Virus record (IMG/VR): IMGVR_UViG_3300028591_000105
DNA from: an uncultured virus (IMG/VR IMGVR_UViG_3300028591_000105)
Lineage: Duplodnaviria > Heunggongvirae > Uroviricota > Caudoviricetes
Reading direction: 5' to 3' (one strand)
DNA: 64,000 nucleotides
Part shown: piece after piece, positions 1 through 63,811 of the stretch
Layout: every line of letters starts with the position of its first letter
How positions within the stretch are numbered: position 1 is the first letter of the stretch
Made by a program: the position numbers and the translations under genes
The notes under the pieces: model-generated
The model's database searches: none
Told to the model about the DNA's origin: nothing
The model's input: only the letters and a program-made list of their open reading frames with translations

Positions 1-2691
1 GGTTCAATAGTAGGTCCTGGAAGAGGTAGCTCTGTATGTTTCTTATCTAATTATCTTTTAGGAATAACTTAGCTTGACCCGATAGAATGGGAGCTTCCCT
101 ATTGGAGATTCTTGAATGAAGAACGTGTTGAGCTACCCGATATTGATATAGACCTAGCTCCATCAAAAAGACCTGAAATATTTAAACGTATTAGAGAAGA
201 GCGTGGTGAATTAAATGTGCTTCAAGTATGTACTTTTGGCACAGAAGGTACAAGAAGTGCAATTGCTGCTGCCGGCAGAGGTTATCGAAGTGAAAAGTAT
301 CCAGATGGATTAGAGGTAGAAATAACTCAATATTTATCGAGTTTAGTACCAATGGAACGTGGCTTTCTTTGGTCAATAGATGAAGTTATTAATGGTAATG
401 TCGAAAAAGATCGTAAACCTGTACAAGCCTTTATAGATGAAGTTTCTAAATATCCTGGTTTATTAGAGCTGATTCAATCTATTGAAGGACTTATTTGCCG
501 CCGAGGCATTCACGCGAGTGGAGTAATACTTTATAATAATAGTCCTTTTGAAACCAATGCTATCATGCGCAGTCCTGATGGCACTCTCACAACATAGTTC
601 GATCTTCATCAGTCTGAGTGGGCTGGCGACGTAAAATATGACTATTTAGTTACTGAAATATGTGATAAGCTAACCTCTTGTATTGAGCTGCTCCAGCGCG
701 AGGGATTAATAGATCCGAATAAAAAACTGAGAGAGGTTTATAATGAATATCTTCATCCGGCAGTATTGAATTTGGACGATAGTAAATTATGGGACGCATT
801 GGCTGAAGGCTCTGTCCTTGATGTATTCCAGTTCAGTACGGGAGTCGGATTGGCAACGGCAAAGCAAGTTAAACCTCGTAATCCTACTGAATTAACTTCC
901 GCAAATGCTCTAATGCGTCTTATGGGAGAAAAAGGGAAGGAGCGGCCGCTTGATAGATATTGCCGTATTAAGCAAGATATAAATAGATGGTACGATGAAG
1001 TAAGAGCAATAGGTTTAAGTGAAGAAGAAATAAAAGTTCTTGAACCTTATTATGTACCTAATTACGGAGTGCCGGCTAGCCAAGAAGACCTTATGATGGT
1101 TTGTCTTGACCCAAAACTAGCTCATTTTACACTTAAAGAGGCCAATGCCGCGAGAAAAACCGTGGCTAAAAAACATATGGGCGAAATACCTGCATTACAC
1201 GATAAGTTTGTTAATCAATGTCCAAATACTAGACTTGGTGAGTACGTATGGGAAACTACCATGGGACCTTAGATGGGTTATGCATTTGCTCGACCTCACG
1301 CCCTTGCATACAGCTTCGTAGGTATCCAAACTCTCTATCTTGCCACCAACTTTCCACCCATCTTCTGGAATTGTGCTTGCTTAATAGTAAGCGCCGGCGG
1401 AACAGATTTGCTTAATATGGATTTTGATGATGAAGAGACTGATGAAAAGAAAAAGAATAAAAATGTCGATTATGGTAAAATTAGTAAAGCAATAGGAGAA
1501 TCAAAAGAAAAGGGAATTAAAATTGCTCCACCAAATATAAATCATTCTGACTTAATATTTAAACCAGACCTTTATAATAATCAAATCTTATATGGACTTA
1601 AAGGGATATCTCGTATAGGAACAGATTTAGTTTATGAAATATTTAAACATCGTCCATATACATCTATTTCTGACTTTTGCAAAAAGGTAAAAGTTAATAA
1701 ACTTCAAGCAACTTATCTTATAAAATCTGGTGCTTTTGACGATTTATACGGCGGTGACAGAGAAAAAGTGATGAAAGAGTACTTATCTTCTGTCGCTGAC
1801 CAGAAAAAGCGCATTACTCTTCAAAATATGAATATGCTTATAGAAAAAGATTTACTTCCTGAAAATTTAGACTTGGAAAAAAGAATATTTAATTTTAACA
1901 AGTATCTCAAAAAATTTAAGAAAGATAAGTACTACATTCTTGATGATGTGTCTTATAATTTCTTTACTAAAAACTTTAATGAAGATTACCTTGAAGATAT
2001 TCATGTTGAAGACAATAATAGTAGTGCAAAAATACTTCAAACAAAATGGGATAATATTTATAAAACTGCTATGAATCCAGTAAGAGATTGGATGAAAGCA
2101 AATCAAACAGAAATTCTTAATACTTTAAATACTACTTTATATCAAGAAACATATAATAAATATGCCTCTGGCTCGCTATCTGAATGGGAAATGGAATCAT
2201 TAAGTTTCTATTATCACGACCATGAGTTAGCAAATCTCAATACAAGAAAGTATGGAATAGTTGATTTCAAGTATCTTAGTGAAGAGCCAGTAGTTGACCG
2301 TCAATTCACAACTAAAGATGGTAATGAAATAACCCTATTTGAAATAAGCCGTATTGCAGGTACTGTTATAGACAAAGATAAGAACAAATCTGAAATTATA
2401 CTGCTGACAACAAGCGGTGTAGTTACTGTAAAAGTTTGGAAGAATCAATATGCCAAATGGGATAAACAAATATCTGAACGTGGTGAAGATGGTAAAAAGC
2501 ATGTTGTCGAGAAGAGCTTCTTCTCGAAGGGCACTAAGTTAATTATCACTGGTATACGCAGAGGAGATAATTTTATTCCTAAAAAATATAAGTCTACTGA
2601 ATATCCTTTATTTGAGAAAATAATATCTTTAAGTGAAGATGGTTCTACAATAGTAGACTTTGCGACTGAAAGAGCGGAGGTAGAAGAATGA
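1..2691 (+). CDS. dnaE: DNA polymerase III alpha subunit (5' end outside window), TAG=Gln
   Basis: GPGRGSS, GIT*LDP, RFLN.ER..LPDIDID, GIHASGV, KYDYL, GYAFARPHALAYS motifs; track ORFs 112, 766 and 1273 share one frame broken only by TAG at 70, 595 and 1270; ends TGA. Confidence 0.95.
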
Positions 2692-3626
2692 GTTCCATTG
2701 GACTCTATGATTTAGACTTGCTTCATTCTCCTAAATCTTGGCCAAACCTTGAGCTTATGAAAGTATATAATTACTTTCATAAGCAAGGAGACCAAGTAAT
2801 ACTAATGAATAAAAAGGAAGATGAAGGACGATATAATAAAATCATATATTTCAAAGATAATAAAAAACTTCAAATTCCAAAGGGGATAAATGTAATTGGT
2901 AGAAATAAATAGATATATGGAGAAGGTTTTTTTAATACCTTTTCCCCCTTGCCAGAAAAATATTCCATTTCGCCGCCGGACCCAATAGTTTATCTAACAG
3001 TTTGTAACAAATTTAAAACTATTAAATGGAATAATTTTATAAGAAGTTCAATTGTAAGATTTTCTAATAATGATATGACAGGTTATAAACCAGAAGCAAA
3101 AGACCTTTATATTGTTGATAGAGATTTTTGCGCACTAGAGGGCGCGGCAGATTTCTTACTAGAATACAAACAAAAAACAATTCACTTTTTCCACACTTTA
3201 AGAATAACTTCAATTGAAGATTATAATTTATTTAGTCGCTTTACTTTAATACTATCAAAACCTTTATTTATAGATTTTAAATTTAATAAGGAGTTTTTAT
3301 TAGAAAACATTAATGAAAAACTTCACTTTAATGTATATACCCCTCAAGCAGAAGAAACAGATAAGGATTTTAAAATAAGGACTATTAAAATGGGGATAAT
3401 TATAAAAAATAAAAAAGCACTATTTATTTATAATCAAATTTTTATGAGAGATAGATTTTAGAGCTATATTGCAAAATGGATTGCTGCGCCGGCATAGAAT
3501 ACTTATGCTTAGTATTATAAAGATAATAAAGAAGCCTTGGCTTTTATGAATAATGCCTCAACAGAAATACGCTTATTATTAAAATCTAATCCTTAGACTA
3601 CTAATATTGAAATAATTGACTTTTGA
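2688..3626 (+). CDS. hypothetical protein, N-terminus resembling phage radical-SAM-associated family (IGLYDLD...PNLELMK..YFH..GD), TAG=Gln
   Basis: track ORFs 2688 and 2949 in one frame joined through TAG; continues through further TAGs to TGA at 3624; no CxxxCxxC seen. Confidence 0.7.
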
Positions 3627-3644
3627 ATAAAAAGGTGGTATAAT
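3616..3644 (+). promoter_or_regulatory. sigmaA/sigma70-type promoter
   Basis: TTGACT-17 bp-TATAAT with TG extension, upstream of AAGGAGG RBS of 3670. Confidence 0.8.
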
Positions 3645-3669
3645 TATTATAAATAAAGGAGGAATAAAA

Positions 3670-3852
3670 ATGAATGAACTTAAAGATAAATTAGATATAC
3701 TTAATTTCAAACTAAAAACTAAAAAAGTTGAGTTAGATAGAATCTCAATAAATACTTTTACTTACAATCCTAAAATTACAGAACTATCTCATGAAATAAA
3801 AGAATTAGAGAAAGAAAAACATGAAATTCTTTCTCAGATGGAGGGCGAATGA
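3670..3852 (+). CDS. small coiled-coil hypothetical protein
   Basis: AAGGAGG RBS, 60 aa, stop overlaps next start. Confidence 0.75.
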   Translation: MNELKDKLDILNFKLKTKKVELDRISINTFTYNPKITELSHEIKELEKEKHEILSQMEGE

Positions 3853-4586: not shown

Positions 4587-5411
4587 ATGGCAGAAAAAAT
4601 CGATATTTCAAAAAATTAGAATAACACTATTGAATCTTTTGTCAAAATAATGTCTAATAGCAGTGCTCCTCTTGACCAAAATTCTCTAGATGCTTTTACA
4701 GCAATGCTAGAGTTAGAGGATGTTAAGTTTGATGCGATATATGATACTCTAATGCAGGGTATCAATGAAGGATTTGAAAACGAAGGCGTTAGATAGGACT
4801 TAATTGCCGCCCTTCGTAGGACACCTATTACAAACATAGAAGAGGAAAGAAAATCTGCTGAGGATTTTATTAATAATATAAAGGAAGCAGACCTATCTAA
4901 AAATAAAAAGAACTTCCTTATCTCAATTGTGGAAAAAGGAATTTTAGCTGTTATTGATGTAATAGATAACCCAAGAGAAAAAGTTAAAGTTCAGATTGAA
5001 AAGATAGATCCAAATGCAAAGATTCCTGAATATGCTCATAATACAGATGCCGGCGCAGATGTATTTGCATTAGTAGAAACTACTATTTAGCCTGAAGAGA
5101 CGACTTTAGTTAAAACAGGATTGCGGCTAGCAATCCCTAAGGGGTATGAAATTCAAGTTAGACCTCGTAGTGGACTAAGTCTTAAAACAAATCTCCGTAT
5201 TGCAAATGCTCCTGGTACTATTGATGCAGATTATAGAGGCGAACTATGTATCCTTATGAGTAATATTGGTACAAAGCCTTATACCATTAATGCAGGAGAT
5301 AAAGTTGCTCAATTAGTAATAGCTCCAACACCAATGATGGTCTTTGAAGAAACTTCTATTTCAACTGAAACAGATAGAGGGGAAGGCGGTTTTGGAAGCA
5401 CTGATGCCTAA
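4587..5411 (+). CDS. dut: trimeric dUTPase with ~130-aa N-terminal extension, TAG=Gln
   Basis: DAGADV, RPRSGLS, GTIDADYRGE, GDKVAQLV, RGEGGFGST; ATG 4587 with GGAGG; TAG at 4617, 4794, 5088. Confidence 0.92.
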
Positions 5412-6588: not shown

Positions 6589-7085
6589 TAAACATTCTTT
6601 AACTTATTAATATACTTTCTAATTGCTTCTTTCTCCTAAGAAGTTTCTACATTATCCATCATGTATTCAACAAAATTTACTAATGCTCCCATAGCCATTT
6701 CTACACCATCAATCATTCTCTCTTTAGATTCACCATCTCGATAACGACGTCTTCCTTCATTATAATTATAAAGACCTTCTCTCATGCGCTCTAAATGTCT
6801 TTCTTCTCTATCATTAAGAGGATAGTATCTATCATGATTGTATGAATCTCCACGATAGTCTCCATTGTAGCTGCCGCGGCCTTCATCATAGTTATTATAG
6901 CGGCCTCTTGAATCTCGACCTCTTGCGCCATAAGAATCTCCACTCATATCTTCATAATAACATGCCTCTTTTATGTCCTTGTAAATATCTATTAGTTTAT
7001 AAGCAGTATCAAGATTTGATGAGGTGAGACCTTTTTCGCCTATGCTATCAAGTTCTTTCTTAACTTTTCTTAAAAGTTCGTCCAT
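6588..7085 (-). CDS. hypothetical protein (Arg/Gly/Tyr-rich, RGRDSRGRY), TAG=Gln
   Basis: track ORF extended through TAG 6636 to TAA 6588, overlapping next ATG. Confidence 0.8.
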
Positions 7086-7492
7086 TAACCTTCACCTCCT
7101 GTTGTTGCTGTATCTGCAGGAATTGGAATTGAGGGTGCGGCGGCAGCATTGCACCCATTGCATCCAATATTATCTAACAATCTAAAAACTCCACTTTGTA
7201 TATTAGTTCTCACCACACATGGATATATACTTCTTGATGCTATATTACAAGCACTTGCATTGGTGCAATTAGAGTTTACTAGAGGATAGATAGTTGTTTC
7301 ATCATCTCCGATTGTTATGCCCACAGAAGCAGCAATAGTTGTATCTTCAGGAATCTCCTAACCAATTACTAAGCAATATTTCTAACCATTATTGTAGCTG
7401 CCGGCTGGAATATTTATTAATAGATTAGGAGCAGTAAAGGTTACTGACTCTGAAAAGATAAAATTCTTACATAATCTGTTTGGACATGCCAT
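7085..7492 (-). CDS. Cys-rich hypothetical protein (MACPNRLC...), TAG=Gln
   Basis: AAGGTG RBS, ATG 7492, two TAGs, ends TAA overlapping next ATG. Confidence 0.75.
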
Positions 7493-7503
7493 TAGCAATC
7501 ACC

Positions 7504-8466: not shown

Positions 8467-8700
8467 TTATTTTAGTAAAGACATGAAATTACTAAACTCT
8501 TTATTTAAATCCATTCCATTTTGCTAAAACATCTAAGAAGCGAGATTAACTAAGCTATTTGTATCACCGCCCTAAGCAAACTCAATTAATGAGTTTATAT
8601 TAGGGTCATTAATACCATTGTTTTTTATCATTTGAAGTGCAACATTTTTAGGATCTCGCCCTCTCATGAGCGAAGCAAGTGTTGCTATATCTTTCATCAT
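8467..8700 (-). CDS. hypothetical protein (MMKDIATLASLMRGRDP...), TAG=Gln
   Basis: AGGAGG RBS, three in-frame TAGs, TAA stop. Confidence 0.75.
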
Positions 8701-9098
8701 ATATCAAAACCTCCTTTTTGTTTTGGTTTTGCCTATTCTAATGCGCTAATGCGTTCATCATAAGATTTGAGTTGTGCAATTAATTGTTCTATTACATTGT
8801 TCTCTTCACTCTGCGCCGGCGCAGCAACATTTTCTTCATTTCCTGTAAGTGGCTCTATTTTATAGGGATAAAATAGAGGATTGCCATTTTGCATTGTCTT
8901 TATATACATTACATTTTCTGGAAGACATAAAGCAATAGACATGCCGGCTCCCACAGGAACGTTTGCAACTTCTAAAGTTGAATTAATTTGATAAACGTTA
9001 CCTTGTGGCTAAGGAAAAAGTGGCTGAACTGTTTGATTTTGTGTCACTATGCCGGGCTGTGGCGGCATAGTATGATTTGCATTATAACCGTATGGCAT
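8697..9098 (-). CDS. Pro/Gln-rich hypothetical protein, TAG=Gln
   Basis: GAGGTG RBS, ATG 9098, two TAGs, TGA overlapping next ATG. Confidence 0.75.
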
Positions 9099-9233
9099 AT
9101 TATTCACCTCGATTTATTTTTCTTTGCATTAAATATGTGGAAAATACACAAATTCCATCGAGAGAAGATAAGTAAATTTTGTAAAAATTCTACAAAAACT
9201 AAAGGGCGGCAAGAAGTAGTTTGTTAAAAATAA

Positions 9234-9287: not shown

Positions 9288-9665
9288 TTATTCTTTTATA
9301 AATGGTTCGAGTACTTCTAATTCACCGAGAGTTAAGCCTAAATTTTCAAGTTCGTCAAGTGAGAAATAGAGGTCTGGAATTTGAATCTCAACGGAATCTA
9401 TCTCTTCAATTGCTTGATTTAACTCGTCTACTTTATCTATCTAAACTCTTATGCCGCCATCCTCAGTGACAATTGGCTACCCATTTTCATCGAGTTCAAA
9501 AAAACGTTGAAGGCCGGCGCGTTGTTCGTGATAGATTTCAAGTTCTTCTGCAAGAGCTCTGTTGAGTTTTAGGAATTTATATTGAGTTTGAATAGAGAAT
9601 TGTTTTGAAGAAAGATTGGTGATAATCTGAGAAAGACTATCGAGTATTGAACGTTTAATTAGCAT
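9288..9665 (-). CDS. hypothetical protein downstream of tail-tip gene, TAG=Gln
   Basis: GGAGG RBS; reads through TAG 9477 to TAA 9288. Confidence 0.75.
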
Positions 9666-41514: not shown

Positions 41515-41538
41515 AGTCTTTCTCAACCTCCTTTACTA

Positions 41539-49758: not shown

Positions 49759-49781
49759 GAGGCTCACCTCCATTATAATTA

Positions 49782-53121: not shown

Positions 53122-53134
53122 TTTTATCAACTCC

Positions 53135-54038: not shown

Positions 54039-54181
54039 AAAAACACGTCCTTTCAAGTCAGGTGAGGTTCCGGTCTCTCCGTCCCTCTCACTATATATAT
54101 TATACCACAAAGCAGTATATAATGCAATAGGCAAAATACACAAATTTTTATTTCTCAAATTGTACATAGTGCCAATGCCTG

Positions 54182-54590
54182 GGCGCCTAGCGCCCTGGCG
54201 CTCATATTTTAGCGCTTTAAAGCGCAGCCGCGCGAGCCGGCGATTTAGTTAAATCTTTTAACAAAATAGACAAAATGAAAGAGGGCGTTCCCTTACCCTC
54301 TTTCGCCGCCGACTACTCCATTACGCGCCGTCCTGGGGGAACAGGCTAAAGGCGCGGGCAAATTGCCTACTCCATTTATTAGGGCTAAACTACACCATTG
54401 GTATCGACCTTCTTTCTCGCCCTTACTGTAATTATATTATACCACATCTAAGTCTATTTGTCAATACTCTCTCGCAAATTTAAATGTAAATTGTTTATTA
54501 ACTCACCGTTGCTAAATCGTGAACGCGGCGCCTAGCGCCCTGGCGCTCATATTTTAGCGCTTTAAAGCGCAGCCGCGCGAGCCGGCGATT
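54182..54590 (+). repeat. perfect 64-bp direct repeat pair (54182-54245 and 54527-54590)
   Basis: GGCGCCTAGCGCCCTGGCGCTCATATTTTAGCGCTTTAAAGCGCAGCCGCGCGAGCCGGCGATT identical in both copies. Confidence 0.95.
54272..54430 (-). ncRNA. candidate structured small RNA / TAG minigene transcript
   Basis: TTGACA-17-TATAAT promoter (54436-54464), three hairpins plus terminator, AATGGAGTAG twice; only ORF is ATG GTG TAG...TAA. Confidence 0.45.
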
Positions 54591-54766
54591 GTTCACAGTT
54601 TCGACATATGGTATTACTAAACTATGAACACTGGGAGGGACCGAGTTAGCCTATGCTAACTTTAAAACATTAAAGTGGTGTGCTCATATGAATATGCATT
54701 CATATGAATATATACTCATGTCTGATTTAGTTAAAATTTTTAATCAATTGGTAAAGCAAAAGGGCT

Positions 54767-55237
54767 TTACGCCCTTTTGATTAAATTCATCAAAGTTTTT
54801 TCATTGGTAAATGTTGCCTTTTCATATTTAATTTGGTAAGCAATTCCATTTACTGTAACGTCACCGTCCTCGGTAAACTTCTTATTATCCTTTTTCCATT
54901 CTATACCATTTATTTCAGTATAGAGCTTTTCAAAAATCTCCCCTTTGTTATACTTGCTATTTTCTACCATATCATTAAAGTACTCGGCAGAACAGATTAA
55001 AACAGGATTGAACAAAGTGAACATTAATTTCTTAATCTGCTTTGTGGGCTTAAATCTCAATGCCATTCCTGCGCCCCTGCTTGCTCTATCTAACGTGAGC
55101 AGAACGTCAAGGTGCTTTTCATCAGTAACCACATAATATACGTTCTTCTCCCACTCAAACCCGAAAACATAGTTGTGAGTATAAGCAAGCCTATTGTACC
55201 ACTCTATCATAGTCAGCAGAAGATTGATGTTTGTCAT
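54767..55237 (-). CDS. early protein, possible PD-(D/E)XK nuclease fold
   Basis: NKGEIFEK...GDVTVNGIAYQIK pattern; own promoter at 55309. Confidence 0.6.
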   Translation of the reverse strand: MTNINLLLTMIEWYNRLAYTHNYVFGFEWEKNVYYVVTDEKHLDVLLTLDRASRGAGMALRFKPTKQIKKLMFTLFNPVLICSAEYFNDMVENSKYNKGEIFEKLYTEINGIEWKKDNKKFTEDGDVTVNGIAYQIKYEKATFTNEKTLMNLIKRA

Positions 55238-55710
55238 ATAATCAAGTCCTTTCATTTTTAAGGTTTACCCTTGCTTTCTGATACTATTATAACACATAAA
55301 AAGCCGGTTGTCAATAGATTTTTGAAAAGTTTTTCATATTCTCTGTTTTGCACAAAAAAGTTGAATTATTTTGTGCACATTGTCTGTCAACCATTTTCCT
55401 TTACAAAGAAAGAGGGCGTGTCAAGTGATCCGCTTGACACGCTTATTTAATGTAAAGTATTTCTACTTTACAAAGGTGTTTGCTATTTAGTTAAAATTTT
55501 TAACTAAATCGCCGCCAGCGCTCAGTGTGGTGTTCATAGAATAGACATATGTGACTAAAGTGTGAACGGCGCGCCTCTTGCATGTTCATAGATTAGACAT
55601 ATGTGACTAAAGTGTGAACACATGGAGGGACTCGAGTTAGCCTATGCTAACTCATATCTCGCTTTAACGCTTTAAAGTGTTAGTACTTTACCATGAGTAA
55701 GTGGCTTTGT

Positions 55711-55838
55711 CCGGGCACGACTGGGCATGACCGGGCGAGCTGGGCTTTATCGTGCCCGGGCAAGCTGGGTTTGCCTGGAGAGCTAGAGGGCTCCTAGAGA
55801 GCTAGAGCTGAGCTAGAAAGCTAGGCTAGAAAGCTAGT
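55711..55838 (+). repeat. GC-rich CYGGGC repeats plus AGCTAG microrepeat cluster 2
   Basis: CCGGGC/CTGGGC at ~10-bp spacing then about six (A)GCTAG units. Confidence 0.7.
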
Positions 55839-55892
55839 GTTTAATTCACTACCTCGGCGCCGTGACCCTCACGACGCCCTTAATCTATATCT

Positions 55893-56060
55893 CTAATCCC
55901 ATTTACTCAATTGAACAAAATTGTGAGTATCCTTGCAGAATGGACAATACAAATTCTTCAAATGTTCCTTAGAAGTCATACGACTTGACTTCTTATATGC
56001 AGTAGCAACATAACCACAAGTTGGACATTTAAAACGACGTTCAGTAGTTGTCTTTTTCAT
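55893..56060 (-). CDS. Zn-ribbon protein resembling ribosomal protein L33, ends at TAG
   Basis: FKCPTCG...HLKNLYCPFCKDTHNF; GAGGTG RBS; 55 aa. Confidence 0.65.
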   Translation of the reverse strand: MKKTTTERRFKCPTCGYVATAYKKSSRMTSKEHLKNLYCPFCKDTHNFVQLSKWD

Positions 56061-56245
56061 TATTCGTTCACCTCACTTGCATAATCAGTCAGAATAATAA
56101 TTATATTCCAATCAGAATACTGTTTATAATTCCTATCACTAACATGATTTTTAGTTGCTATATCTATAAAACTTATAGCAAACCACATGATAAACATAAT
56201 AGCAATAGTCAACAGAAAATACCCAATCTTTTTAATTCCGTTCAT
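56060..56245 (-). CDS. early membrane protein
   Basis: single hydrophobic helix; promoter -35 at 56300. Confidence 0.7.
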   Translation of the reverse strand: MNGIKKIGYFLLTIAIMFIMWFAISFIDIATKNHVSDRNYKQYSDWNIIIILTDYASEVNE

Positions 56246-56430
56246 TTGGAACACTCCCTTTCTCTTTACTATAATAATTATAACAAAATTTTATAAAAAA
56301 GTCAATGAATAAATTGTAAATAATTATTAAAGATTTTATTACCATGCACCGGCGCAGCGAAGCATTTGGTTAAAAAATTTAATTAATTAATAAAAAGAAA
56401 ATTAAAGCGGACACTTACGTCCGCCTTAAA

Positions 56431-56943
56431 TTATTCTGCATAACAAACCATGTGCTTAAATCTACAGTATTCGTCTCTTTCGTTGCTCTTCCTAATAAAG
56501 AGGTGTTCAGTTTTGCCAAAACATGAAGTTACCTGACCGTGCACGTGAACAACACTCATAACATTTGACGGAGTAACGTCAAACTTTTCTGCGAGAACAT
56601 AAACGGACTGCTGACCATTTACCTTAATGTATTTCATTAACTTATTATACAGAACATATCCATAATCTTTTGTTTTGTATTCAATCTTTTCATCATCTCT
56701 AAGTGAAACGCAAAATCTTGCAATCTGCTGAGAAGTTGCATTGAAATATTTTGCAATATTAGCAATATCTTCTGTTCTGACAAAACCGTTATACTTTTCA
56801 AGTATATAATTAAGAATCTCATTCTTTCTTGCATTCAACTTCATTTTATCAAGTCTTCTCTGTGATACACTAATACTCGTTGTACCCTCTGCTTTAAGAA
56901 GATTTGCAAACTCGTCTACAGTAATGTTAATTCTCTTTCCCAT
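56431..56943 (-). CDS. early tandem HTH-like protein
   Basis: IAKYFNATSQQIARF and VLAEKFDVTPSNV helices; similar layout to 63111. Confidence 0.7.
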   Translation of the reverse strand: MGKRINITVDEFANLLKAEGTTSISVSQRRLDKMKLNARKNEILNYILEKYNGFVRTEDIANIAKYFNATSQQIARFCVSLRDDEKIEYKTKDYGYVLYNKLMKYIKVNGQQSVYVLAEKFDVTPSNVMSVVHVHGQVTSCFGKTEHLFIRKSNERDEYCRFKHMVCYAE

Positions 56944-57336
56944 AATGTACCTCTTTCTACCACTTTTGTGGATTTGACTTTTTTATTCGTGGGGTTCTTT
57001 CCCCCTTACCTTGCAATATTATTATACCACACCCACCAATAAAAATCAATAAGAAAATCCAAATAATTTTTAAAAGAATTATGAACGACTTCCAAAAAAT
57101 ACCAACCTCATTCCAACCCCTAACGCAAAATAATATGACCCCATTGTTAAATAAATATGACCCCTTTGTAAACAGCGGCCCGGCATAAATCAATCCGCTT
57201 TAAAGCATTAAAGTGACCCCTTTAAAAAAAAACAAGGGGAAATTAATACCCCTTGTTATCCAGTTAAGTAAACGTAACCGCCAGTTATTATCCCCGTACT
57301 TCAAACGCCACTTAACCCTTAAATTATGAAACTTTC

Positions 57337-57486
57337 TCATTTGTTTTCACTCTCCTCAAACATCTCATAATCTACATATTCTGTACCACAATATGGACAA
57401 GTATTATCTTCCGCAAGATTTGCAAATTCTGTGCCGCACTCGGTACAAAGATAATACTCACCGTCAAAAATTATCAGAGGTTCCAT
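57337..57486 (-). CDS. small Zn-ribbon protein (49 aa)
   Basis: YLCTECG...TCPYCG; ATG overlaps previous stop. Confidence 0.7.
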   Translation of the reverse strand: MEPLIIFDGEYYLCTECGTEFANLAEDNTCPYCGTEYVDYEMFEESENK

Positions 57487-57659
57487 TATACTTCTTTCCT
57501 TTCTTTTACTACACACGCAGATATACAGCGCGGATTTTGCTTTATCTTATGCATTTGACTAAATGCTATTTCCTTATTAGTATTAGAATAGTATCGAATC
57601 ACTTTTATAGAAGTGCCAACCTTAAAACGAATGATTACAGAATAGAACTTCTTCTTCAT
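57486..57659 (-). CDS. early basic small protein (57 aa)
   Basis: AAGGAAGTG RBS, TAA stop. Confidence 0.6.
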   Translation of the reverse strand: MKKKFYSVIIRFKVGTSIKVIRYYSNTNKEIAFSQMHKIKQNPRCISACVVKERKEV

Positions 57660-57663
57660 TTTA

Positions 57664-57849
57664 TCACTTCCTTAATGCCTTTTTCTTGTCCATTAAATAC
57701 CAAATAGCAGATTGAATTTTTTCTGCTTTTTCACTATCAGTCGTATGATACATACAAACCGTAAGAAACTGAATTAGAATGTCAAACTCTTCTTGAATCT
57801 TAAACTCATATGCTGAAATTATCAGTCTTGCTAACTGTCTTTCTGTCAT
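57664..57849 (-). CDS. early hypothetical protein
   Basis: promoter -35 at 57900, AGGGG RBS. Confidence 0.7.
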   Translation of the reverse strand: MTERQLARLIISAYEFKIQEEFDILIQFLTVCMYHTTDSEKAEKIQSAIWYLMDKKKALRK

Positions 57850-58016
57850 TCTTATCAACCCCTTTACTGTAATTATATTATATCATATAATCACAAAAAA
57901 GTCAATGAATATTTTGTAAACAATTTGTTAACTTGCACCGGGCGACACGTCGCCCTTTAAAGTGCTAAAGCGCAAAAAGCAAAAGAAAAGGGCGCGTAGT
58001 GCGCCCTTAGTTGATT

Positions 58017-58424
58017 TTACTCAACCTCGGCGGAGGGCTTGGTATAACCCTTCACCGTGTCCTTCTTCTTGCCCGTGGGCGTGAACTCACTGACAATGAT
58101 ACCATTCATCTTGGACAGCAGACCAGTCGCCTTCTGTGTAGAACTCAGACCGAAAAGGTCGGCAATTTCCTTTGCAGTATAAGTCTTGTCGAACTCCATA
58201 CCGTCAAAAATCTCGGCTCTCTTTGCGGCAGTTTCCTGCGCACTCTTGGAAGTGCCGTTCTTGCGGTTCTCATTGGCAGTGTCGAGTGCCTTGATACGAC
58301 CCTTAGCGAACTCAATCGCAGAATCGGTAAAAGTACCGTCCTCGTTGAGAACCTTGATGATTGCGCCGTCCTTAGTGGTCGCAGAACCATTGATGATAGC
58401 AGTGAAGAACTCTCTCTGTGTCAT
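58017..58424 (-). CDS. early winged-HTH protein
   Basis: MTQREFF N-terminus; TAKEIADLFGLSSTQKATGLL; promoter -35 at 58531. Confidence 0.75.
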   Translation of the reverse strand: MTQREFFTAIINGSATTKDGAIIKVLNEDGTFTDSAIEFAKGRIKALDTANENRKNGTSKSAQETAAKRAEIFDGMEFDKTYTAKEIADLFGLSSTQKATGLLSKMNGIIVSEFTPTGKKKDTVKGYTKPSAEVE

Positions 58425-58588
58425 AGTGTACCTCTTTCTCTGTTTTTAGGAGTTTGTCAGCTCTCTCTAATTTTGTTTTAGGGGCTTTCCCCTTACCTTA
58501 TGTATTAATTATACCATACTTTCTCTTGTTTGTCAATTAAGTTTCTTTTAAAACTTTTTGAACTTTTTGTTAAGAGATTTTTGGTAAA

Positions 58589-58659
58589 TACGCCCACCGA
58601 GAATCGAACTCGGATTGATAGATTAAAAGTCTACTATTCTACCTTTAAATTATAGGCGC
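58589..58659 (-). tRNA. trnK: tRNA-Lys(UUU), divergent, CCA not encoded adjacent
   Basis: GCGCCTA/TGGGCGT acceptor, ATTT/GAAT D stem with GG, GTAGA-CTTTTAA-TCTAT anticodon arm, CCGAG-TTCGATT-CTCGG T arm; upstream TAGACT-17-TATAAT. Confidence 0.85.
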
Positions 58660-58852
58660 ATTGGAGAGGTTTTCTATTTTTCTCTCTCTCTCGCTATATA
58701 TATATTATAGCAGATTTTTAGAAAAAAGTCTATAGATTGATTATTAATTTTATATATTTTTTACGTGAATTAGTTAAAATATTTAACTGAACCGCCAGTG
58801 GCCGGCGCATCGTTCACATCTTGTTAATAAAAAAGAGGGGCACTACCCCTCT

Positions 58853-59047
58853 TTAATATCCAGTATCAATTTCAGTGCCGTCCTCTGTGACTTCATAGAC
58901 ATGGTATTCATCATAATCAGTATGCGCAATAGGGCGGTGCATATCACTGTCAAATTCATCGTATGCTTTATTAAATGCCTCCTCTTCGTCCTCTGCTTCT
59001 ACAGAATAGGAATAACTTTGAATAAAATTTACGTAGTACTGTGCCAT
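58853..59047 (-). CDS. early acidic protein (VEAEDEEEA)
   Basis: AGAGG RBS, terminator 58829-58854. Confidence 0.75.
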   Translation of the reverse strand: MAQYYVNFIQSYSYSVEAEDEEEAFNKAYDEFDSDMHRPIAHTDYDEYHVYEVTEDGTEIDTGY

Positions 59048-59049
59048 TT

Positions 59050-59289
59050 TTATATACCTCTTTTCTTAAATTTTATTATTGTCTTTTTGAATTTATATAC
59101 ATTCATACCATGCTTATCTACTGCCTTTTTTATTTGATTTTCCTCAACTAAAGCCGTACAAATAGAAGTCACTTTATAAAAATTTCCGTTTACTTCTGAG
59201 GCAATTTCTCTTATAGAAAAATATTCCTTTTTATTTCTTGCCAAAAAATCCATAATTTCTTTTGCAATTTCTTTGTTTTCAATATTCAT
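59050..59289 (-). CDS. early winged-HTH protein
   Basis: FSIREIASEVNGNFYKVTSICTALVEENQI. Confidence 0.7.
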   Translation of the reverse strand: MNIENKEIAKEIMDFLARNKKEYFSIREIASEVNGNFYKVTSICTALVEENQIKKAVDKHGMNVYKFKKTIIKFKKRGI

Positions 59290-59290
59290 A

Positions 59291-59557
59291 TTACTACCTC
59301 TTTTCCTCTTTAAATTCTTCTTCTTGTGTATAACAACAAACTTGCCGCTCACCTAAATACCCCTTGAAAAATTTTTCATTGTTACAAAATTCATTTGTCA
59401 TTTCATCTATACATTCTTTTATCTCTTCTTCCTCATAATAATAATGCTTACCGTGGTCTTTAAGTATATCAGTCATAAATTCAAGTGCTTCTTTTCTATC
59501 AGTAAAAACTATAGGTTCATCATGACTATCAGACATTATATAAATTGTTTTCTTCAT
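59291..59557 (-). CDS. early acidic hypothetical protein ending TAG TAA
   Basis: promoter -35 at 59628, AAGGA RBS. Confidence 0.75.
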
Positions 59558-59802
59558 AGTATCAATCCTTTCTACTTTATAAGGTTCTCTTTTACTGTAA
59601 TTATATTATATCATATTCAAGAGTAAAAGTCAATGAATATTCTGTAAATTATCTATTAATACTCCACGCCGCCCTGCCATATTTTACCAGAAATACCATT
59701 TTTTAGTAGGGCGGCACTTTGTGACGGAACTATGAACATATGCGATGCCACCGTCGCAAGTGTTCACATTTGGTTCATAAAAAAAAGAGGGCATTGCCCT
59801 CT

Positions 59803-59973
59803 TTATATAAACTCCTGCCAATCGCCTATATATACGCTTTTTTCACCGCCAATTTCTCTTATCTCACAATCTGCGGGAACTGCCCAGAGACAATCATCAT
59901 CACAGCACGTTACAGTTACTTCCATATCATCGTCACACTCTTCTAAAAAGTCCTTTAATTCTTTTACTGTCAT
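59803..59973 (-). CDS. early acidic small protein (MTVKELKDFLEECDDDMEV)
   Basis: AAGGAGTG RBS, TAA, terminator. Confidence 0.75.
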   Translation of the reverse strand: MTVKELKDFLEECDDDMEVTVTCCDDDCLWAVPADCEIREIGGEKSVYIGDWQEFI

Positions 59974-59979
59974 ACTAAA

Positions 59980-60234
59980 TCACTCCTTTAATTCAGTTTC
60001 AAATAAAATATAATCTCCTACTTGTCCTGTTTCTTCCAAAAATTTTTTATCTTTTTCAATGATACAGCATAATTGGTCTAAACCATCTTCATATTCATCT
60101 TCATAATAAAGATACTCAATATTTTCGTAAGCATTTAAAGCACTTTCTTTTGTTAAAAATACTCCATAACACTCATGAAAAATATCTCCCTGTTCATAAT
60201 CATCGTTTCCCTCATATAAAACGTATACTTTCAT
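59980..60234 (-). CDS. early acidic protein (MKVYVLY...YGVFLTKESA)
   Basis: AGGAG RBS, intact ORF. Confidence 0.75.
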   Translation of the reverse strand: MKVYVLYEGNDDYEQGDIFHECYGVFLTKESALNAYENIEYLYYEDEYEDGLDQLCCIIEKDKKFLEETGQVGDYILFETELKE

Positions 60235-60235
60235 A

Positions 60236-60457
60236 TTAAATTACTCCTATCAAAAATTTAATTACATAATAAGTATTCATACCGCCTAATGCCCCATTAA
60301 TCAAAATCGCATTAAAGTTCTTTTCCTTTATACCGTCTATTAAACCGACAATACAAGTATAAAGAAAAACGAAACTTCCGACAGGAGACCCTGCGACAGT
60401 TAAACACGCGCCAAGGATAAGTACCCAAGCATTGATAGCAACTAACTTCTCTAACAT
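60236..60457 (-). CDS. early multi-pass membrane protein
   Basis: hydrophobic helices; promoter -35 at 60506. Confidence 0.7.
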   Translation of the reverse strand: MLEKLVAINAWVLILGACLTVAGSPVGSFVFLYTCIVGLIDGIKEKNFNAILINGALGGMNTYYVIKFLIGVI

Positions 60458-60654
60458 TGTCTCACGTCCTTTCTTTAATACTATTATATCATATAGAAAA
60501 CCAAATGTCAATGAATAAATTGTAAATTATTTGTTAACTCGCGCCGGCACGAGGTATGAACAAAATATTAACACTTACGATGCCACCGTCGTGGTTGTTC
60601 ATATTTTAGAAACATAAAATAAGGCGGAGTTCATTCTCCGCCATTAATTATTAT

Positions 60655-61092
60655 TTAGTTATTAAATTCATAGTAATGCAATTCAATAATTTTAGGATTT
60701 TTCCACCACCCTAATTTTTGAATTTCAGCATTCCAATCCTTTTTATCAAAATGCACATAAACAGTCACGCCGCTATATGATGAATATCCAATATGAACTA
60801 TCTTTTTATTCTTAAAACTACTATCTTGATTAAAGCGGGAATTTATTAAATTCACTCTTGTATAGCCGTGTTCTATTTCACCATGATGAACTCCATGTGT
60901 AATATCAACACGAGAATCTGCACAACAATCAAATTTAGTTATAATATTTTTATCTATCAATTCATTTACTATTATGGTTTCTCCTTTTTCTATTCTTTTT
61001 TTAATTTCATGGACAGAACATTCAATTGCATTATCAAAAACTTTTCCATCAAAAGATTCAAATTTTTCTACCATAACTTTAATTTTTTTCAT
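60655..61092 (-). CDS. early hypothetical protein (FESFDGKVFDNAIECSVHE)
   Basis: promoter -35 at 61166, RBS, terminator. Confidence 0.75.
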   Translation of the reverse strand: MKKIKVMVEKFESFDGKVFDNAIECSVHEIKKRIEKGETIIVNELIDKNIITKFDCCADSRVDITHGVHHGEIEHGYTRVNLINSRFNQDSSFKNKKIVHIGYSSYSGVTVYVHFDKKDWNAEIQKLGWWKNPKIIELHYYEFNN

Positions 61093-61272
61093 AACATCAA
61101 AACCTTTCTGTTTTATAGAGTTTTCTCTCTTTCTTTAATATTATTATAGCATATAAATACTCAATTGTCAATGAATATTTTGAAACAAATTGCGAAATTG
61201 TTATGAACATCTGCGACGCCACCGTCGTGGTTATTCATAAAATATTAAAGCGGGCGCAATGCCCGCTTATCA

Positions 61273-61584
61273 TCACCAAAAAATATGGAGTAAAAATTCT
61301 TCTGGAATATTTTTCTTCTTAATTTCATCTACTACACAATTGAGTATATTGACTGTACCATAATCTCCTTCCTCTACTGCCGTATCAATTGTCTCATAAA
61401 TCATATCCAAGTCCCATATTTTATAACTGTTATTCGCCTGAAATTCTGCAAAGATAGACCATAAAAGTCTTGGTCCCTCAAACGAGTCAAGATTAGAAAT
61501 AATCTCTCTATACCTTTCATTATCCATGAAAAACCTTTCAAAATATTCCATTTCAATAACCTTATACTCTTTGTATTCAATCAT
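61273..61584 (-). CDS. early acidic hypothetical protein
   Basis: promoter -35 at 61663, RBS, terminator. Confidence 0.75.
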   Translation of the reverse strand: MIEYKEYKVIEMEYFERFFMDNERYREIISNLDSFEGPRLLWSIFAEFQANNSYKIWDLDMIYETIDTAVEEGDYGTVNILNCVVDEIKKKNIPEEFLLHIFW

Positions 61585-61690
61585 AATATCAATCCTTTCA
61601 AATCTTTAAGATATTCTCTATATCTTTTACTGTAATTATATTATACCATATTCTAAGTCGTCTGTCAATGAACAAATTGTAAACTTTATT

Positions 61691-62041
61691 TTAATTTATT
61701 GAGTAGTTAATTAAAGTTTTGTCCGTCCATTTAGTATGTGTAACTGTTTTTGTTACTTCAATTTCATTGTTAATTTCAATATCGTTATACAGATTAACAT
61801 TAATAGTAAAAGTCTGTTCGCCGTCCTCTGTATCTATTACTACATAATATTTTCTAATATTTGTTTTACCACTGCGAACACATCTTGTATACTTATCCGT
61901 AACAGTTACATATACTGTGGCGTACTTAGATTCACCGAACATAAAATCAAGAGTGAAAAACGATAAAAGACCGATTAAAGCAATTGAAAATATAAGAAGT
62001 ACAAAAAACTTTATTATATCCTTTACATTTGATTTTGTCAT
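61691..62041 (-). CDS. early membrane-anchored protein
   Basis: N-terminal TM helix then beta-rich domain (VTVTDKYT...YYVVI). Confidence 0.75.
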   Translation of the reverse strand: MTKSNVKDIIKFFVLLIFSIALIGLLSFFTLDFMFGESKYATVYVTVTDKYTRCVRSGKTNIRKYYVVIDTEDGEQTFTINVNLYNDIEINNEIEVTKTVTHTKWTDKTLINYSIN

Positions 62042-62059
62042 TTTTTTCTCTCCTTTTTA

Positions 62060-62248
62060 TTATACTAAACGATAAGACCATTCAATATCATCAATTACAT
62101 CATCAAGTTCTTCACCAAGTTCTGCGAGAAATTGCGTTAAAGCACTGTCTAAAATGTCTGTGAGATTTTCCCCTGAAATACGATAATCTCTTTCAAAATA
62201 ACCGTCACCGTATCCCTCAATATATGTAATTGTAATTGCATATGTCAT
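62060..62248 (-). CDS. early acidic protein, paralogue of 52933
   Basis: shared YIEGYGDGY and GEELDDVID; promoter -35 at 62303. Confidence 0.8.
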   Translation of the reverse strand: MTYAITITYIEGYGDGYFERDYRISGENLTDILDSALTQFLAELGEELDDVIDDIEWSYRLV

Positions 62249-62411
62249 ATTAAACACAACCTTTCTTTACTGTAATTATATTATACCATATTCTAACTCA
62301 ATTGTCAATGAATATTTTGTAAATATTTTGCGAGATTGTTATGAACATCTGCGACGCCGCCGTCGTAACTGTTCATAAAAAGTTAAAACGGGCATAATGC
62401 CCGCTTTACAT

Positions 62412-62759
62412 TTATACTTCTGTTTCTCCTATCTTTTCCTGAAAATTTATATAATAATCAAGTATCATTTCATATTTTTCAATAACCTCTTCCAGTGTAT
62501 ATAACACTAAATCATCAAAAATGAAAATATTATCGACAGAATTTTCATCACTAACATCAAACTGATAAAACTCAACATCATCAAGTCCCGCTGATTCATT
62601 GTACAGATAAAGTAAAAAACGTTCCTTATCATCATCAGTGCAGTCTGCAAATTTAAAAGGACGTTCCTCTAAAACTACCTCTTCATAAAAAGTATCAAAG
62701 TCAAGTCCATTTTCTACCTCTACCCACTTGTTTTCCTTGTTAAATAACATTATTTTCAT
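62412..62759 (-). CDS. early highly acidic protein
   Basis: very D/E-rich; promoter -35 at 62834. Confidence 0.75.
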   Translation of the reverse strand: MKIMLFNKENKWVEVENGLDFDTFYEEVVLEERPFKFADCTDDDKERFLLYLYNESAGLDDVEFYQFDVSDENSVDNIFIFDDLVLYTLEEVIEKYEMILDYYINFQEKIGETEV

Positions 62760-63110
62760 GGTATCAATTCCTTTCTGTTTTATAGAGTTTTCTCTCTTTT
62801 CTTTAATACTATTATATCACACATAAGCCGTTTTGTCAATGAATAAATTGTAAACTATTTATTAATACTTTTTGCCGCCCTACCACATTCTGTCAGGAAT
62901 ACCAATTTTTGGTAGGGCGGCGCTTTGTAACTAAATTGTGAACATATACGATGGCAACGTCGTAAACATTTACAATTTAAATTCAAATTGTTTACATTTT
63001 ATTCATTGACTTCTGCTCAGATATATGCTATAATATAATTACAGTAAGGGAGAAAAAACTCCACGAACTGAAAAAATCAAATCCCTATAAGGGTAGAAAG
63101 AGGTATTATT

Positions 63111-63629
63111 ATGAAGATGAACAGAGAGTATTTTAACAAGTTAGCAGACATTATGTTTAATGGTGACGATGAGGTTGACGTTCCCGAAAGTTTTCGTAAA
63201 GCAGTCATGCATGGCGTTATTAAGGGAGAGATAAAAAAGGTAGCAGAGGAACTTTATCCTAATCATAAGCTTCCCAGTATTAGTGCTTCAACCACAATTG
63301 CAAAGAAACTGGGAAGAAATGCTAATCAGGTAGCTTATTATCTTAGTGAGTTAATACATGAAGATGAAATTTTTAATTGGGAATGGGAGCCTACTAATAC
63401 TAAGTCTGCAAAGGTTAATGATTTACTTAACAAGACTTTTTCTGAAAAAAATGTTCAGTACATGGACGTTTATACACTCGCAGAGCTTTTTGATATGACT
63501 GTAAATTCTATCATTGCTTGTGTAAGTAATGCCAATAGTCGTTGTGAAAAGTATTTTATAGAAACTCTGGATTGCTACGATGAAAGAGGTAGACGTATGA
63601 TTTATGTAAAACATTATAAGAACAGATAA
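63111..63629 (+). CDS. early tandem HTH-like protein
   Basis: TTGACT-17-TATAAT at 63006; IAKKLGRNANQVAYYL and TLAELFDMTVNSI. Confidence 0.75.
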   Translation: MKMNREYFNKLADIMFNGDDEVDVPESFRKAVMHGVIKGEIKKVAEELYPNHKLPSISASTTIAKKLGRNANQVAYYLSELIHEDEIFNWEWEPTNTKSAKVNDLLNKTFSEKNVQYMDVYTLAELFDMTVNSIIACVSNANSRCEKYFIETLDCYDERGRRMIYVKHYKNR

Positions 63630-63811
63630 TCTAAAGTGGGCGCAAATGCCCGCTTTCTTTTATCCTAATTATTAACAAAATGTTACAAAATGCCGGCGCG
63701 CCATAATAGAAAATTCATAAAATAAATACAATTTATTGATGATTCTAAAGGTGAGATATGGTATAATATAATTACAGTAAAGGGCAAAACCTAAAGGAAG
63801 GAATTGATATT

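Follow-up and report, generated by a model that had tools for sequence, protein, structure and literature searches.

Why should a short palindrome made only of G and C recur so often in the DNA of an AT-rich phage? The question is raised by 64,000 nucleotides from an uncultured tailed virus (Caudoviricetes; IMG/VR record IMGVR_UViG_3300028591_000105), a stretch that we analysed at its full length and call the window. A first-pass annotation, made from the letters alone, had counted about 39 copies of the hexamer GCCGGC and read them as a selected genome-wide mark: a binding site for a phage protein, a methylation-linked iterated palindrome or a Chi-like recombination signal. We find 40 copies, and 25 of the 25 coordinates that it listed are right; the G+C content, which it had put at ~30%, is 33.1% over the whole 64-kb window. 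The excess is real and is explained neither by protein sequence nor by codon usage. GCCGGC is the most conspicuous of a family of G+C-only words and not a lone mark. The earlier proposal thus holds in part: the enrichment is genuine and codon-independent and the comparison with highly iterated palindromes (HIPs) is apt, while the idea of a single selected mark does not stand.

Base composition (order 0) predicts 1.3 copies in the window, and Markov models predict 1.85 (order 1), 3.2 (order 2), 13.8 (order 3) and 35.7 (order 4). Dinucleotide-preserving shuffles contain 1.80±1.23 copies with a maximum of 5, and 40 was reached in none of 100. A codon-aware null had been named as the test on which the enrichment might founder; it persists, with 28 genic copies against 2.08±1.30 in per-gene synonymous codon shuffles (maximum 6 among 300). 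Shuffling codons inside blocks gives expectations of 3.67 (100-codon blocks) and 7.48 (40-codon blocks) against the same 28. The gene calls used throughout are longest-frame calls, not curated ones. As had been noted by eye, the genic copies lie on both strands and many others lie in early spacers: 12 are intergenic, nine of these at 52.3-60.6 kb. The one-letter neighbour GCCGCC/GGCGGC is also in excess, 13.6-fold over the order-1 expectation. Its 28 GCCGCC and 22 GGCGGC make 50, against 2.6 that had been expected for the pair. Nine of these neighbours do occupy the interval of 17.4-30.7 kb that had been described as a gap, and the gap is not empty of GCCGGC itself, holding one copy at 29096.

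The 28 genic copies are read as GCC GGC (Ala-Gly) 15 times, as xxG CCG GCx (x-Pro-Ala) 12 times and in the CGG frame once. The codons that write the word are rare here (GCC is 10% of Ala, GGC 18% of Gly and CCG 9% of Pro codons), and Ala-Gly is spelled GCC GGC 15 times against 1.1 expected. The excess acts at the level of DNA (or RNA), not of protein. The copies, with the strand of the gene that holds them and, where there is one, an aligned copy in a complete relative (G001, introduced below), are as follows.

271-276, in the DnaE-type polymerase gene (1-2691, plus strand): GCC GGC, Ala-Gly
1071-1076, in the polymerase gene: GTG CCG GCT, Val-Pro-Ala; aligned copy in G001
1393-1398, in the polymerase gene: Ala-Gly; aligned copy in G001
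3488-3493, in gene 2688-3626 (plus): GCG CCG GCA, Ala-Pro-Ala
5049-5054, in the dUTPase gene (4587-5411, plus): Ala-Gly in ...TDAGADVF...; aligned copy in G001
7400-7405, in gene 7085-7498 (minus): Ala-Gly
8811-8824, in gene 8697-9107 (minus): the 14-base perfect palindrome CTGCGCCGGCGCAG, Ala-Ala-Pro-Ala-Gln
8943-8948, in gene 8697-9107 (minus): Ala-Gly
9513-9518, in gene 9288-9665 (minus): Ala-Gly
10651-10656, in the tail gene 9679-14892 (minus): Ala-Gly
13967-13972, in the tail gene 9679-14892 (minus): Val-Pro-Ala
16111-16116, in the Dit-like gene 14911-17478 (minus): Ala-Gly
16732-16741, in gene 14911-17478 (minus): two overlapping copies, GCCGGCCGGC, Ala-Pro-Ala-Gly
17372-17377, in gene 14911-17478 (minus): Leu-Pro-Ala; aligned copy in G001
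29096-29101, in gene 28670-30136 (minus): Ala-Gly; absent from the first-pass list
30761-30766, in gene 30141-32261 (minus): the sole copy in the CGG (Arg) frame
31783-31788, in gene 30141-32261 (minus): Ser-Pro-Ala
32014-32019, in gene 30141-32261 (minus): Ser-Pro-Ala; aligned copy in G001
32439-32444, in gene 32283-34292 (minus): Ala-Gly
34039-34044, in gene 32283-34292 (minus): Thr-Pro-Ala
35455-35460, in gene 34372-37029 (minus): Ala-Gly
36229-36234, in gene 34372-37029 (minus): Ala-Gly
37096-37101, in gene 37042-37794 (minus): within the 12-base palindrome TGCGCCGGCGCA, Ala-Gly; aligned copy in G001
40300-40312, in the spacer after gene 40381-41526 (minus): twins GCCGGC-C-GCCGGC, which can pair as a 5-bp G/C hairpin
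43698-43711, in gene 42198-43805 (minus): the 14-base palindrome CTGCGCCGGCGCAG, Ser-Ala-Pro-Ala-Gln
44664-44669, in the portal gene 43802-45352 (minus): Leu-Pro-Ala; aligned copy in G001
48142-48147, in the spacer 48104-48170
49100-49105, in the sigma-like gene 48568-49872 (minus): GCGCCGGCGC, Ala-Pro-Ala
52305-52318, in an early-region spacer: the 14-base palindrome CTGCGCCGGCGCAG, directly after AAAGTGTGAAC
52807-52812, in an early spacer: within ACGCCGG-CGC-CCGGCGT
53716-53728, in an early spacer: twins GCCGGC-G-GCCGGC, then GTTCAC
53777-53782, in an early spacer: between TGAACA and a GCRCTTTAG... repeat
54236-54241: in the direct repeat AGCGCTTTAAAGCGCAGCCGCGCGAGCCGGCGATT, copy 1
54581-54586: in the direct repeat AGCGCTTTAAAGCGCAGCCGCGCGAGCCGGCGATT, copy 2
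58801-58806, in an early spacer: then GTTCAC
60543-60548, in an early spacer: within CTCGCGCCGGCACGAG, an imperfect 16-base palindrome
63692-63697, at the end of a doubtful small open reading frame, 63683-63889 (minus)

GCCGGC does not stand out by number among its kin. The window holds 413 all-G/C hexamer positions and 110 runs of at least seven G/C bases against 18.5 expected. Counted as double-stranded sites, the commonest words are GCCGCC/GGCGGC (50), CGCCGG/CCGGCG (45), GCCGGC (40), CGGCGC/GCGCCG (38) and CGCCGC/GCGGCG (36). Ranked by enrichment they are GCCGGC (31-fold), GCCGCC (19-fold), CCGGCG (17-fold), CGGCGC (15-fold), CGCCGC (14-fold) and CCGCCG (8-fold), a ranking that is identical in two complete relatives. 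Because a palindrome has half the chance expectation, GCCGGC gains a factor of two and so shows the largest fold excess. Enrichment is near or below 3-fold for hexamers that contain CCC/GGG or GGCC and for most of those containing CGCG, the exceptions being CCGCCC (8-fold), CGCGGC (7-fold) and CGCGCC (6.5-fold). Only 12 of the 64 hexamers are free of CCC, GGG, GGCC and CGCG, and these hold 237 of the 413 positions. Among tetramers, the three frames of (GCC)n, namely CGCC, CGGC and CCGC, are raised; CCGG, CGCG and GGCC are not. The earlier remark that 6-bp palindromes are usually avoided is borne out for many others in the window, above all those containing GATC. In genes, GATC is nearly purged (21 against 128 in synonymous shuffles) and GGCC is halved (20 against 39). 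In the window as a whole many A/T-containing 6-bp palindromes are rare, with GAATTC found three times, AAGCTT four times and TTCGAA and TGATCA once each.

The family can be followed to an effect at synonymous sites. In GCN, GGN and CCN codons the third base is G or C two to four times more commonly if the next two bases are G/C; for GCN the frequency is 0.40 before two G/C and 0.11 before A/T. No such third-base effect is seen in the window for ACN, GTN, TCN and CTN codons, so both flanks must be G/C pairs. Short G/C runs are thereby closed. We decomposed the excess of GCCGGC with a null in which synonymous codons are shuffled and the pattern of strong (S, G/C) and weak (W, A/T) bases of each codon is kept. 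This null gives 14.5±2.7 copies against 27 observed in the window, 55.4 against 103 in G001 and 39.9 against 68 in a second relative, G008C4. A fourteenfold excess is split in this way into about sevenfold from run closure and about twofold from whether C or G is taken. Any other choice at Ala-Gly or x-Pro-Ala would make CCC or GGG, and the remaining twofold comes from avoidance of CCC/GGG, GGCC and CGCG. Avoidance of restriction words of the form SS-W-SS was tried as the cause of closure and rejected: pairs of the GCWGG type are only mildly reduced while GCCGGC rises 13-fold, and closure is also found in non-palindromic contexts.

Relatives were collected through the terminase, an alignment of 35 metagenome relatives leading to 80 viral-contig loci and 64 binned-genome loci; the portal protein alone, searched against viral contigs, returned no relative. 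For most relatives the sample was some 20 kb surrounding the terminase, and the full analysis covers the window and three genomes. Where the terminase is at least 55% identical, GCCGCC, CGCCGC and CCGCCG are almost always the all-G/C hexamers found most often. The leading palindrome, judged against codon-preserving nulls, changes from lineage to lineage. GCCGGC leads in L012/L016 (7 against 0.6-0.7) and L038 (8 against 0.5). GCGCGC leads in L062 (37 against 8.1-8.8, or against 26.1 with the strong/weak pattern kept) and also in L075, L039 and L057, and GGCGCC in L066 (12 against 1.9, or 6.9 with the pattern kept) and L023 (8 against 0.7-0.8). Among the records that are complete or nearly so, GCCGGC numbers 117 against 4.7 in G001 (180 kb with terminal repeats) and 79 against 4.6 in G008C4 (172 kb), and 42 in G004 (164 kb). 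L090, with a terminase 71% identical to that of the window, has no GCCGGC, CCGG, GGCC or GATC in 21.8 kb, yet its G/C runs remain in excess and the (GCC)n words persist. Runs of at least seven G/C bases exceed synonymous shuffles 3.7-fold in the window, 2.6-fold in G001, 3.0-fold in G008C4 and 3.1-fold in L090. Taken together, L090 and the lineage pattern indicate that the six-base palindrome open to a lineage is set by the four-base palindromes that it tolerates. Run closure is not clear in the cultured relative Enterococcus phage H1 (13 against 9.2), so that no laboratory model was found.

Three other apparent palindrome excesses among the relatives were set aside. That of GAATTC in L058 is a protein repeat (Glu-Phe-Ser 17 times; 43 copies against 34.3 in shuffles), CCCGGG in L006 and L017 lies mostly in spacers (6 of 8-9) and represents another kind of repeat, and AAGCTT in L007 is weak (13 against 7.0). 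Some relatives carry iterated words of their own. G001 (L081-L089) has a second iterated word, absent from the window, in the 10-base palindrome CGCCCGGGCG, with 25 copies in 180 kb, and has 30 copies of GCCCGGGC. G008 contig 4 (G008C4; L164-L172) has the non-palindromic, strand-biased 8-mers GTGCCGCC (65 against 0.5) and TGTGCCGC (57 against 1.0), and 42 copies of the palindrome GCCGCGGC.

The pattern is a property of the phages and not of the bacterial contigs binned with them. In bin G006, 34 of 41 GCCGGC copies are on the 167-kb phage contig, and 7 are in the other ~1.5 Mb, from a bin that may not be the host. In G008, where the bin again may not be the host, 200 kb of bacterial-type contigs show no run closure (0.8-fold), and their profile of four-base avoidance is unlike that of the phage contig of the same bin. 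These bacterial-type contigs do hold 40 GCCGGC against 8 expected. A bias shared with the host was rejected as the explanation, the number following from the near-total loss of GCGC/CGCG (0.02-0.03-fold) together with richness in CCGG, not from closure. The bins holding relatives carry many different taxon labels.

An alignment of G008C4 with G004, 143 kb long and at 88% identity, allows the turnover of the words to be followed. Among four-fold sites with identical flanks in the two genomes, the third base is G or C at a frequency of 0.45 and 0.37 in the SS_SS context (two G/C bases on each side) against 0.13-0.21 elsewhere. G/C is retained at 0.60 of SS_SS sites against 0.45-0.49 elsewhere (p 5e-5), and W/S differences amount to 0.18 against 0.07-0.10 (p 1e-7). 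This is a moving equilibrium in which G/C is gained more and lost less between G/C pairs. Retention of all-G/C hexamers is 35%, that of AT-rich hexamers 57-63%. The two genomes differ 1.6-1.9 fold in intensity (257 against 157 G/C runs, 79 against 42 GCCGGC), so the strength of the force changes fast.

The cause of the excess is inferred. The reading that we favour, with a probability of about 0.42, is a phage-borne, context-dependent repair bias that favours G/C and is filtered by restriction avoidance. The bias would reside in the phage's own replication or recombination repair, and mismatch correction would work best between G/C-rich flanks; Jones, Wagner and Radman are said to have found in 1987 that mismatch repair is better in such surroundings. 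The third base of Ala, Gly and Pro codons with two G/C bases on each side would then be driven to G/C, closing short G/C runs. Which words result is set by exclusions, namely of triple identical bases, GGCC and CGCG here and of other four-base palindromes in other lineages; on this reading the outcome would be filtered by restriction avoidance and by codon selection in the most expressed genes. GCCGGC itself would need no function. The spacer copies are a separate matter, sitting in putative G/C hairpins and repeated regulatory modules.

Several observations weigh against a repair bias of this kind. No enzyme able to make it was identified. The use of encodable sites is uneven, which a uniform mutational bias does not predict: the tape-measure gene uses none of 16 against 26 of 74 elsewhere (p 0.004; counts drawn from two slightly different sets of gene calls), and the capsid-region gene 40381-41526 and the terminase each use none of five. 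With the strong/weak pattern fixed, the residual of GCCGGC tops all words tested, at 1.86-fold, 1.86-fold and 1.70-fold (z 4.7 to 10). A force selecting the word would also yield the strong/weak pattern, so the decomposition cannot separate cause from effect. Sites are kept: 8 of 22 window sites are at the same aligned place in G001, at 56% protein identity, and between G008C4 and G004 GCCGGC is kept at 32 of 69 sites against about 0.22 expected from synonymous turnover (p 7e-6), an expectation that follows from the word resting on two four-fold sites at which C or G is each kept at about 0.45-0.5. Finally, closure is only 1.3-1.4-fold in the more distant GCGCGC and GGCGCC lineages, which counts against one common cause. 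On retention, other all-G/C hexamers are kept at 280 of 815 sites, and against these GCCGGC differs with a p of only 0.05. Where Ala-Gly or Pro-Ala is conserved between the window and G001, GCCGGC is used at 11 of 29 positions in the former and 15 of 29 in the latter.

These same observations of conservation above the synonymous expectation, and of a preference that remains once the strong/weak pattern is fixed, would suit a site read by a dimeric phage protein, whether an organiser, a regulator or a replication factor, with copies kept wherever the proteins allow. We regard such a selected site as doubtful. In its favour, occupancy of encodable positions is high: in the window 14 of 60 for Ala-Gly and 12 of 30 for x-Pro-Ala, and in G001 56 of 186 and 38 of 85, respectively. 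The Arg frame is almost unused in the window, at 1 of 37, and stands at 9 of 92 in G001. Three consecutive rare codons are used to write the word. In two of the three CTGCGCCGGCGCAG copies, which lie in genes unrelated to each other, the palindrome is read as x-Ala-Pro-Ala-Gln, and the peptide may thus have been shaped by the DNA word. Copies are denser in the spacers of the window than in its genes, at 2.15 against 0.48 per kb, the spacers holding 12 in 5.6 kb. Seven copies in early spacers lie 3-9 bases from GTTCA/TGAAC, beside other repeated palindromes. In G001, however, spacers are no richer than genes (0.52 against 0.67 per kb). The spacing analysis proposed in the first-pass annotation speaks against a selected site. 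The coefficient of variation of the gaps is 1.23 in the window and 0.99 in G001, which is random, Poisson-like placement and leads us to reject regular spacing; by gap variation periodic placement was not seen in either, the damped-sine test of Xu et al. not being among our methods. Nor does GCCGGC show a trend in position within genes. The flanks are not conserved between relatives (position +1 is G in 50% of window sites and A in 47% of those in G001), the non-palindromic kin are equally frequent as double-stranded sites, the close relative L090 lives without any copy, and no candidate protein was found.

Several spacer copies are twins or long palindromes able to form G/C hairpins, which brings up a role in RNA: the G/C words might be self-complementary clamps that structure or stabilise AU-rich phage messengers. 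The twins after the capsid-region gene (40300/40307), the early-spacer twins (53716/53723) and the palindrome at 52305-52318 could pair judging by their letters, as an intrinsic terminator or another RNA hairpin would, and each GCCGGC could in principle pair with every other copy on the same transcript. Against this, 27 of the 40 copies are bare hexamers with no further symmetry, and relative to the coding strand the non-palindromic kin point both ways (16-18 against 19-20); we hold RNA clamps to be very improbable.

An equally slim chance attaches to the Chi-like role put forward in the first-pass annotation, in which the word would tame an AddAB/RecBCD-type host nuclease during recombination-dependent growth. 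Known Chi words are short, rich in G/C, asymmetric and active in one orientation. GCCGGC is palindromic, and its kin have no strand bias in the window, with 28 GCCGCC and 22 GGCGGC on the plus strand. Some non-palindromic kin are strand-biased in G008C4 (GGCGGCAC, 13 against 52), and the codon-aware null shows a matching bias (122 against 88.7 and 31 against 34.9). The resemblance lies in a short, G/C-rich word far above expectation in a phage genome. Phages without a recombination module of their own can be rich in host Chi (Bobay et al. 2013, PMC3784561; a 2025 Genome Res paper, PMC12315714). In the sections of the latter that deal with Chi-rich lambdoid phages, GCCGGCGC appears only as a near-Chi octamer of a Pseudomonas phage.

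The remaining alternative is a drive run by the host and linked to methylation, as proposed for the alternate HIPs of cyanobacteria: a host cytosine methyltransferase would mark GCCGGC (or CCGG/GC), and repair of a methyl-directed or very-short-patch type would turn near-cognate words into cognate ones. Its appeal is the closeness of the known case. The passages of Elhai 2015 (PMC4390886) that concern alternate HIPs name rCCGGy/GCCGGC in Oscillatoria PCC 10802, GGCGCC in Calothrix PCC 7103 and GCsGC in Cyanothece PCC 7822, pair each with a matching methyltransferase in the same genome and propose that methyl-GC-dependent mismatch repair creates HIPs as a by-product. The enriched words here are those three, and their density of about 1 per 1.4-1.6 kb for GCCGGC is close to the ~1 per kb given in those passages. 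The dominant palindrome switches by lineage, as methyltransferase specificities do. GCTGGC/GCCAGC is the most depleted A/T-containing neighbour in G001 (13 against 28.8, z -3.1), and between the close relatives G008C4 and G004 the alternatives to GCCGGC are mostly GCTGGC (7) and GCCAGC (4), that is, 11 of the 12 single-transition alternatives listed.

We think such a drive unlikely. Neither the C5 methyltransferase that the first-pass annotation suggested searching for nor Vsr was found in the window or in the two complete GCCGGC-rich relatives. For the METHYLTRANSFERASE search, 22 window proteins were scanned against PHROGs and 48 against Pfam, and no methyltransferase was among them. All five relatives searched, including two complete ones, lack PF00145; PF01555 and Vsr (PF03852) were found in neither complete GCCGGC-rich genome nor in the G006 phage contig, and Vsr in none of five records including binned genomes. 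Among 68 non-structural proteins of G001 the sole methyltransferase match is a D12-class adenine methyltransferase. Three PF01555 (N4/N6-type) genes, one with four in-frame TAG, do occur on G007 contig 1, which, from its record number and in-frame TAGs rather than by alignment, is probably the GCCGGC-free phage of L090; the only relative with three such genes would then be one with no GCCGGC. In the window GCTGGC/GCCAGC is not depleted (7 against 7.9). Simple CpG hypermutability was rejected, and the same figures speak against methylation: a four-fold C before G changes as often as before A (0.44 against 0.43). Methylation by the host also fits poorly with the 7 GCCGGC in the co-binned contigs of G006, should these belong to the host, and leaves (GCC)n unexplained.

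How, then, does the system compare with what is known? Alternate HIPs of cyanobacteria are the closest case. On the evidence of the sections cited above, the two are alike in having the same words, G/C-rich, mostly palindromic, genic, spaced once per 1-1.5 kb and with a dominant word specific to the lineage. They are unlike in that here the carrier is a phage, that no matching methyltransferase is found in the window or in complete relatives, and that the phage words belong together as a family linked to run closure at synonymous positions. HIP1 itself (GCGATCGC) resembles the phage word, in the parts of Xu, Lawrence and Durand 2018 (PMC5861425) that bear on it, in the size of the excess (15-300 fold for HIP1, about 30 fold in the phage) and in sites kept between genomes beyond neutral turnover, in the phage with a p of only 0.05 when set against other all-G/C hexamers; those parts argue for selection on HIP1 from conservation and periodicity. 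HIP1, however, is an octamer with a GATC core and is described there as periodic at 10-90 kb, whereas the phage word is a hexamer in a genome purged of GATC, with Poisson-like spacing at scales within 64-180 kb.

Dcm/Vsr repair of Escherichia coli offers a parallel in the depletion of the T-for-C neighbour in one relative (G001) but not in the window, and differs in that no Vsr or C5 methyltransferase was found in the relatives searched. The effect of Dcm/Vsr on the number of CCWGG words is far smaller than that on GCCGGC in the phage. Restriction-site avoidance accounts for missing GGCC, CGCG and (in L090) CCGG and for the loss of GATC; it only removes words and does not by itself close G/C runs. 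A full-text literature search found no description of such words in phages.

The window is part of a large, AT-rich tailed gut phage in which TAG is read as a sense codon. Under the standard code its frames are short; only reading through TAG gives frames as long as 2,590 codons. The gene calls contain 310 in-frame TAG in window 1-49872, and most frames at 50-64 kb have none. That TAG encodes Gln is an assumption; no suppressor tRNA was found in the window, whose sole tRNA is tRNA-Lys(UUU) at 58588-58660. The genes named are the following, identified by family match unless marked otherwise.

1-2691, plus strand: DnaE-type polymerase
within the window: Clp-like protease; RuvC-like resolvase
4587-5411, plus strand: dUTPase
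9679-14892, minus strand: tail gene (not marked as a family match)
14911-17478, minus strand: Dit-like gene
17537-25309: tape-measure protein
27674-37029: five tandem paralogues of one virion protein family (phrog_2729)
40381-41526, minus strand: capsid-region gene (not marked as a family match)
43802-45352, minus strand: portal
45352-47154: large terminase (not marked as a family match)
48568-49872, minus strand: sigma-like protein

The five phrog_2729 genes range from 303 to 885 codons and match mostly through common N- and C-terminal parts. The nearest named relatives of the terminase, at 31-39% identity, are large tailed phages of Geobacillus, Enterococcus, Bacillus and Brevibacillus, and megablast returned no close DNA relative among cultured phages. 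The region at 50-64 kb is made of short frames and many repeated spacer elements. From the family matches, the kin of the terminase and this layout, the terms phage and early spacers used in the first-pass annotation are fair descriptions. Within 49800-64000 there are about ten copies of a promoter of the TTGACA-17-TATAAT type, read on the minus strand, and spacer modules comprising the palindrome TTAGTTAAAANNTTTAACTAA (at least eight copies), GCRCTTTAGYGCTTTAAAGYGC (11 copies), AAAGTGTGAAC (7 copies) and an inverted repeat TGAACA...GCGACGCCRCCGTCG...TGTTCA (5 copies). The relative G001 encodes (L083-L085) gyrase A and B, anaerobic ribonucleotide reductase with its activase, ThyX, an ATP-dependent DNA ligase, two RNA ligases and a PhoH-PIN protein, a gene set that points to an anaerobic host. 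It also encodes (L088:2596-3753) a protein of 385 residues, of which the N-terminal half alone weakly matches adenylosuccinate synthetase (E 2e-11), the family that is the source of the PurZ enzyme in 2-aminoadenine phages.

HIP1-type iterated palindromes have been without an agreed cause for three decades, and this phage clade is useful for the problem: many relatives are sequenced, the dominant word switches between close lineages, complete relatives encode no matching methyltransferase, and the co-binned bacterial contigs lack the pattern. Two layers are separated, run closure at synonymous positions and the pruning that restriction avoidance brings, in a system where population data can tell biased repair from selection. 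There is also a warning, that a 30-fold excess of a palindrome is possible without the palindrome being a signal. At the speculative end, the clade may carry a molecular drive of its own that writes HIP-like G/C-only words without a cytosine methyltransferase, although we would not rate this as likely. The drive could be a context-dependent correction in favour of G/C, carried out by the replisome and repair proteins of the phage (DnaE-type polymerase, RecJ-like, UvrD-like and RuvC proteins), or, alternatively, a DNA-reading protein whose specificity would have shifted between lineages (GCCGGC, GCGCGC, GGCGCC). If so, iterated palindromes would not need methylation, and small, fast-evolving, variant-rich genomes could settle the origin of HIP-type words.

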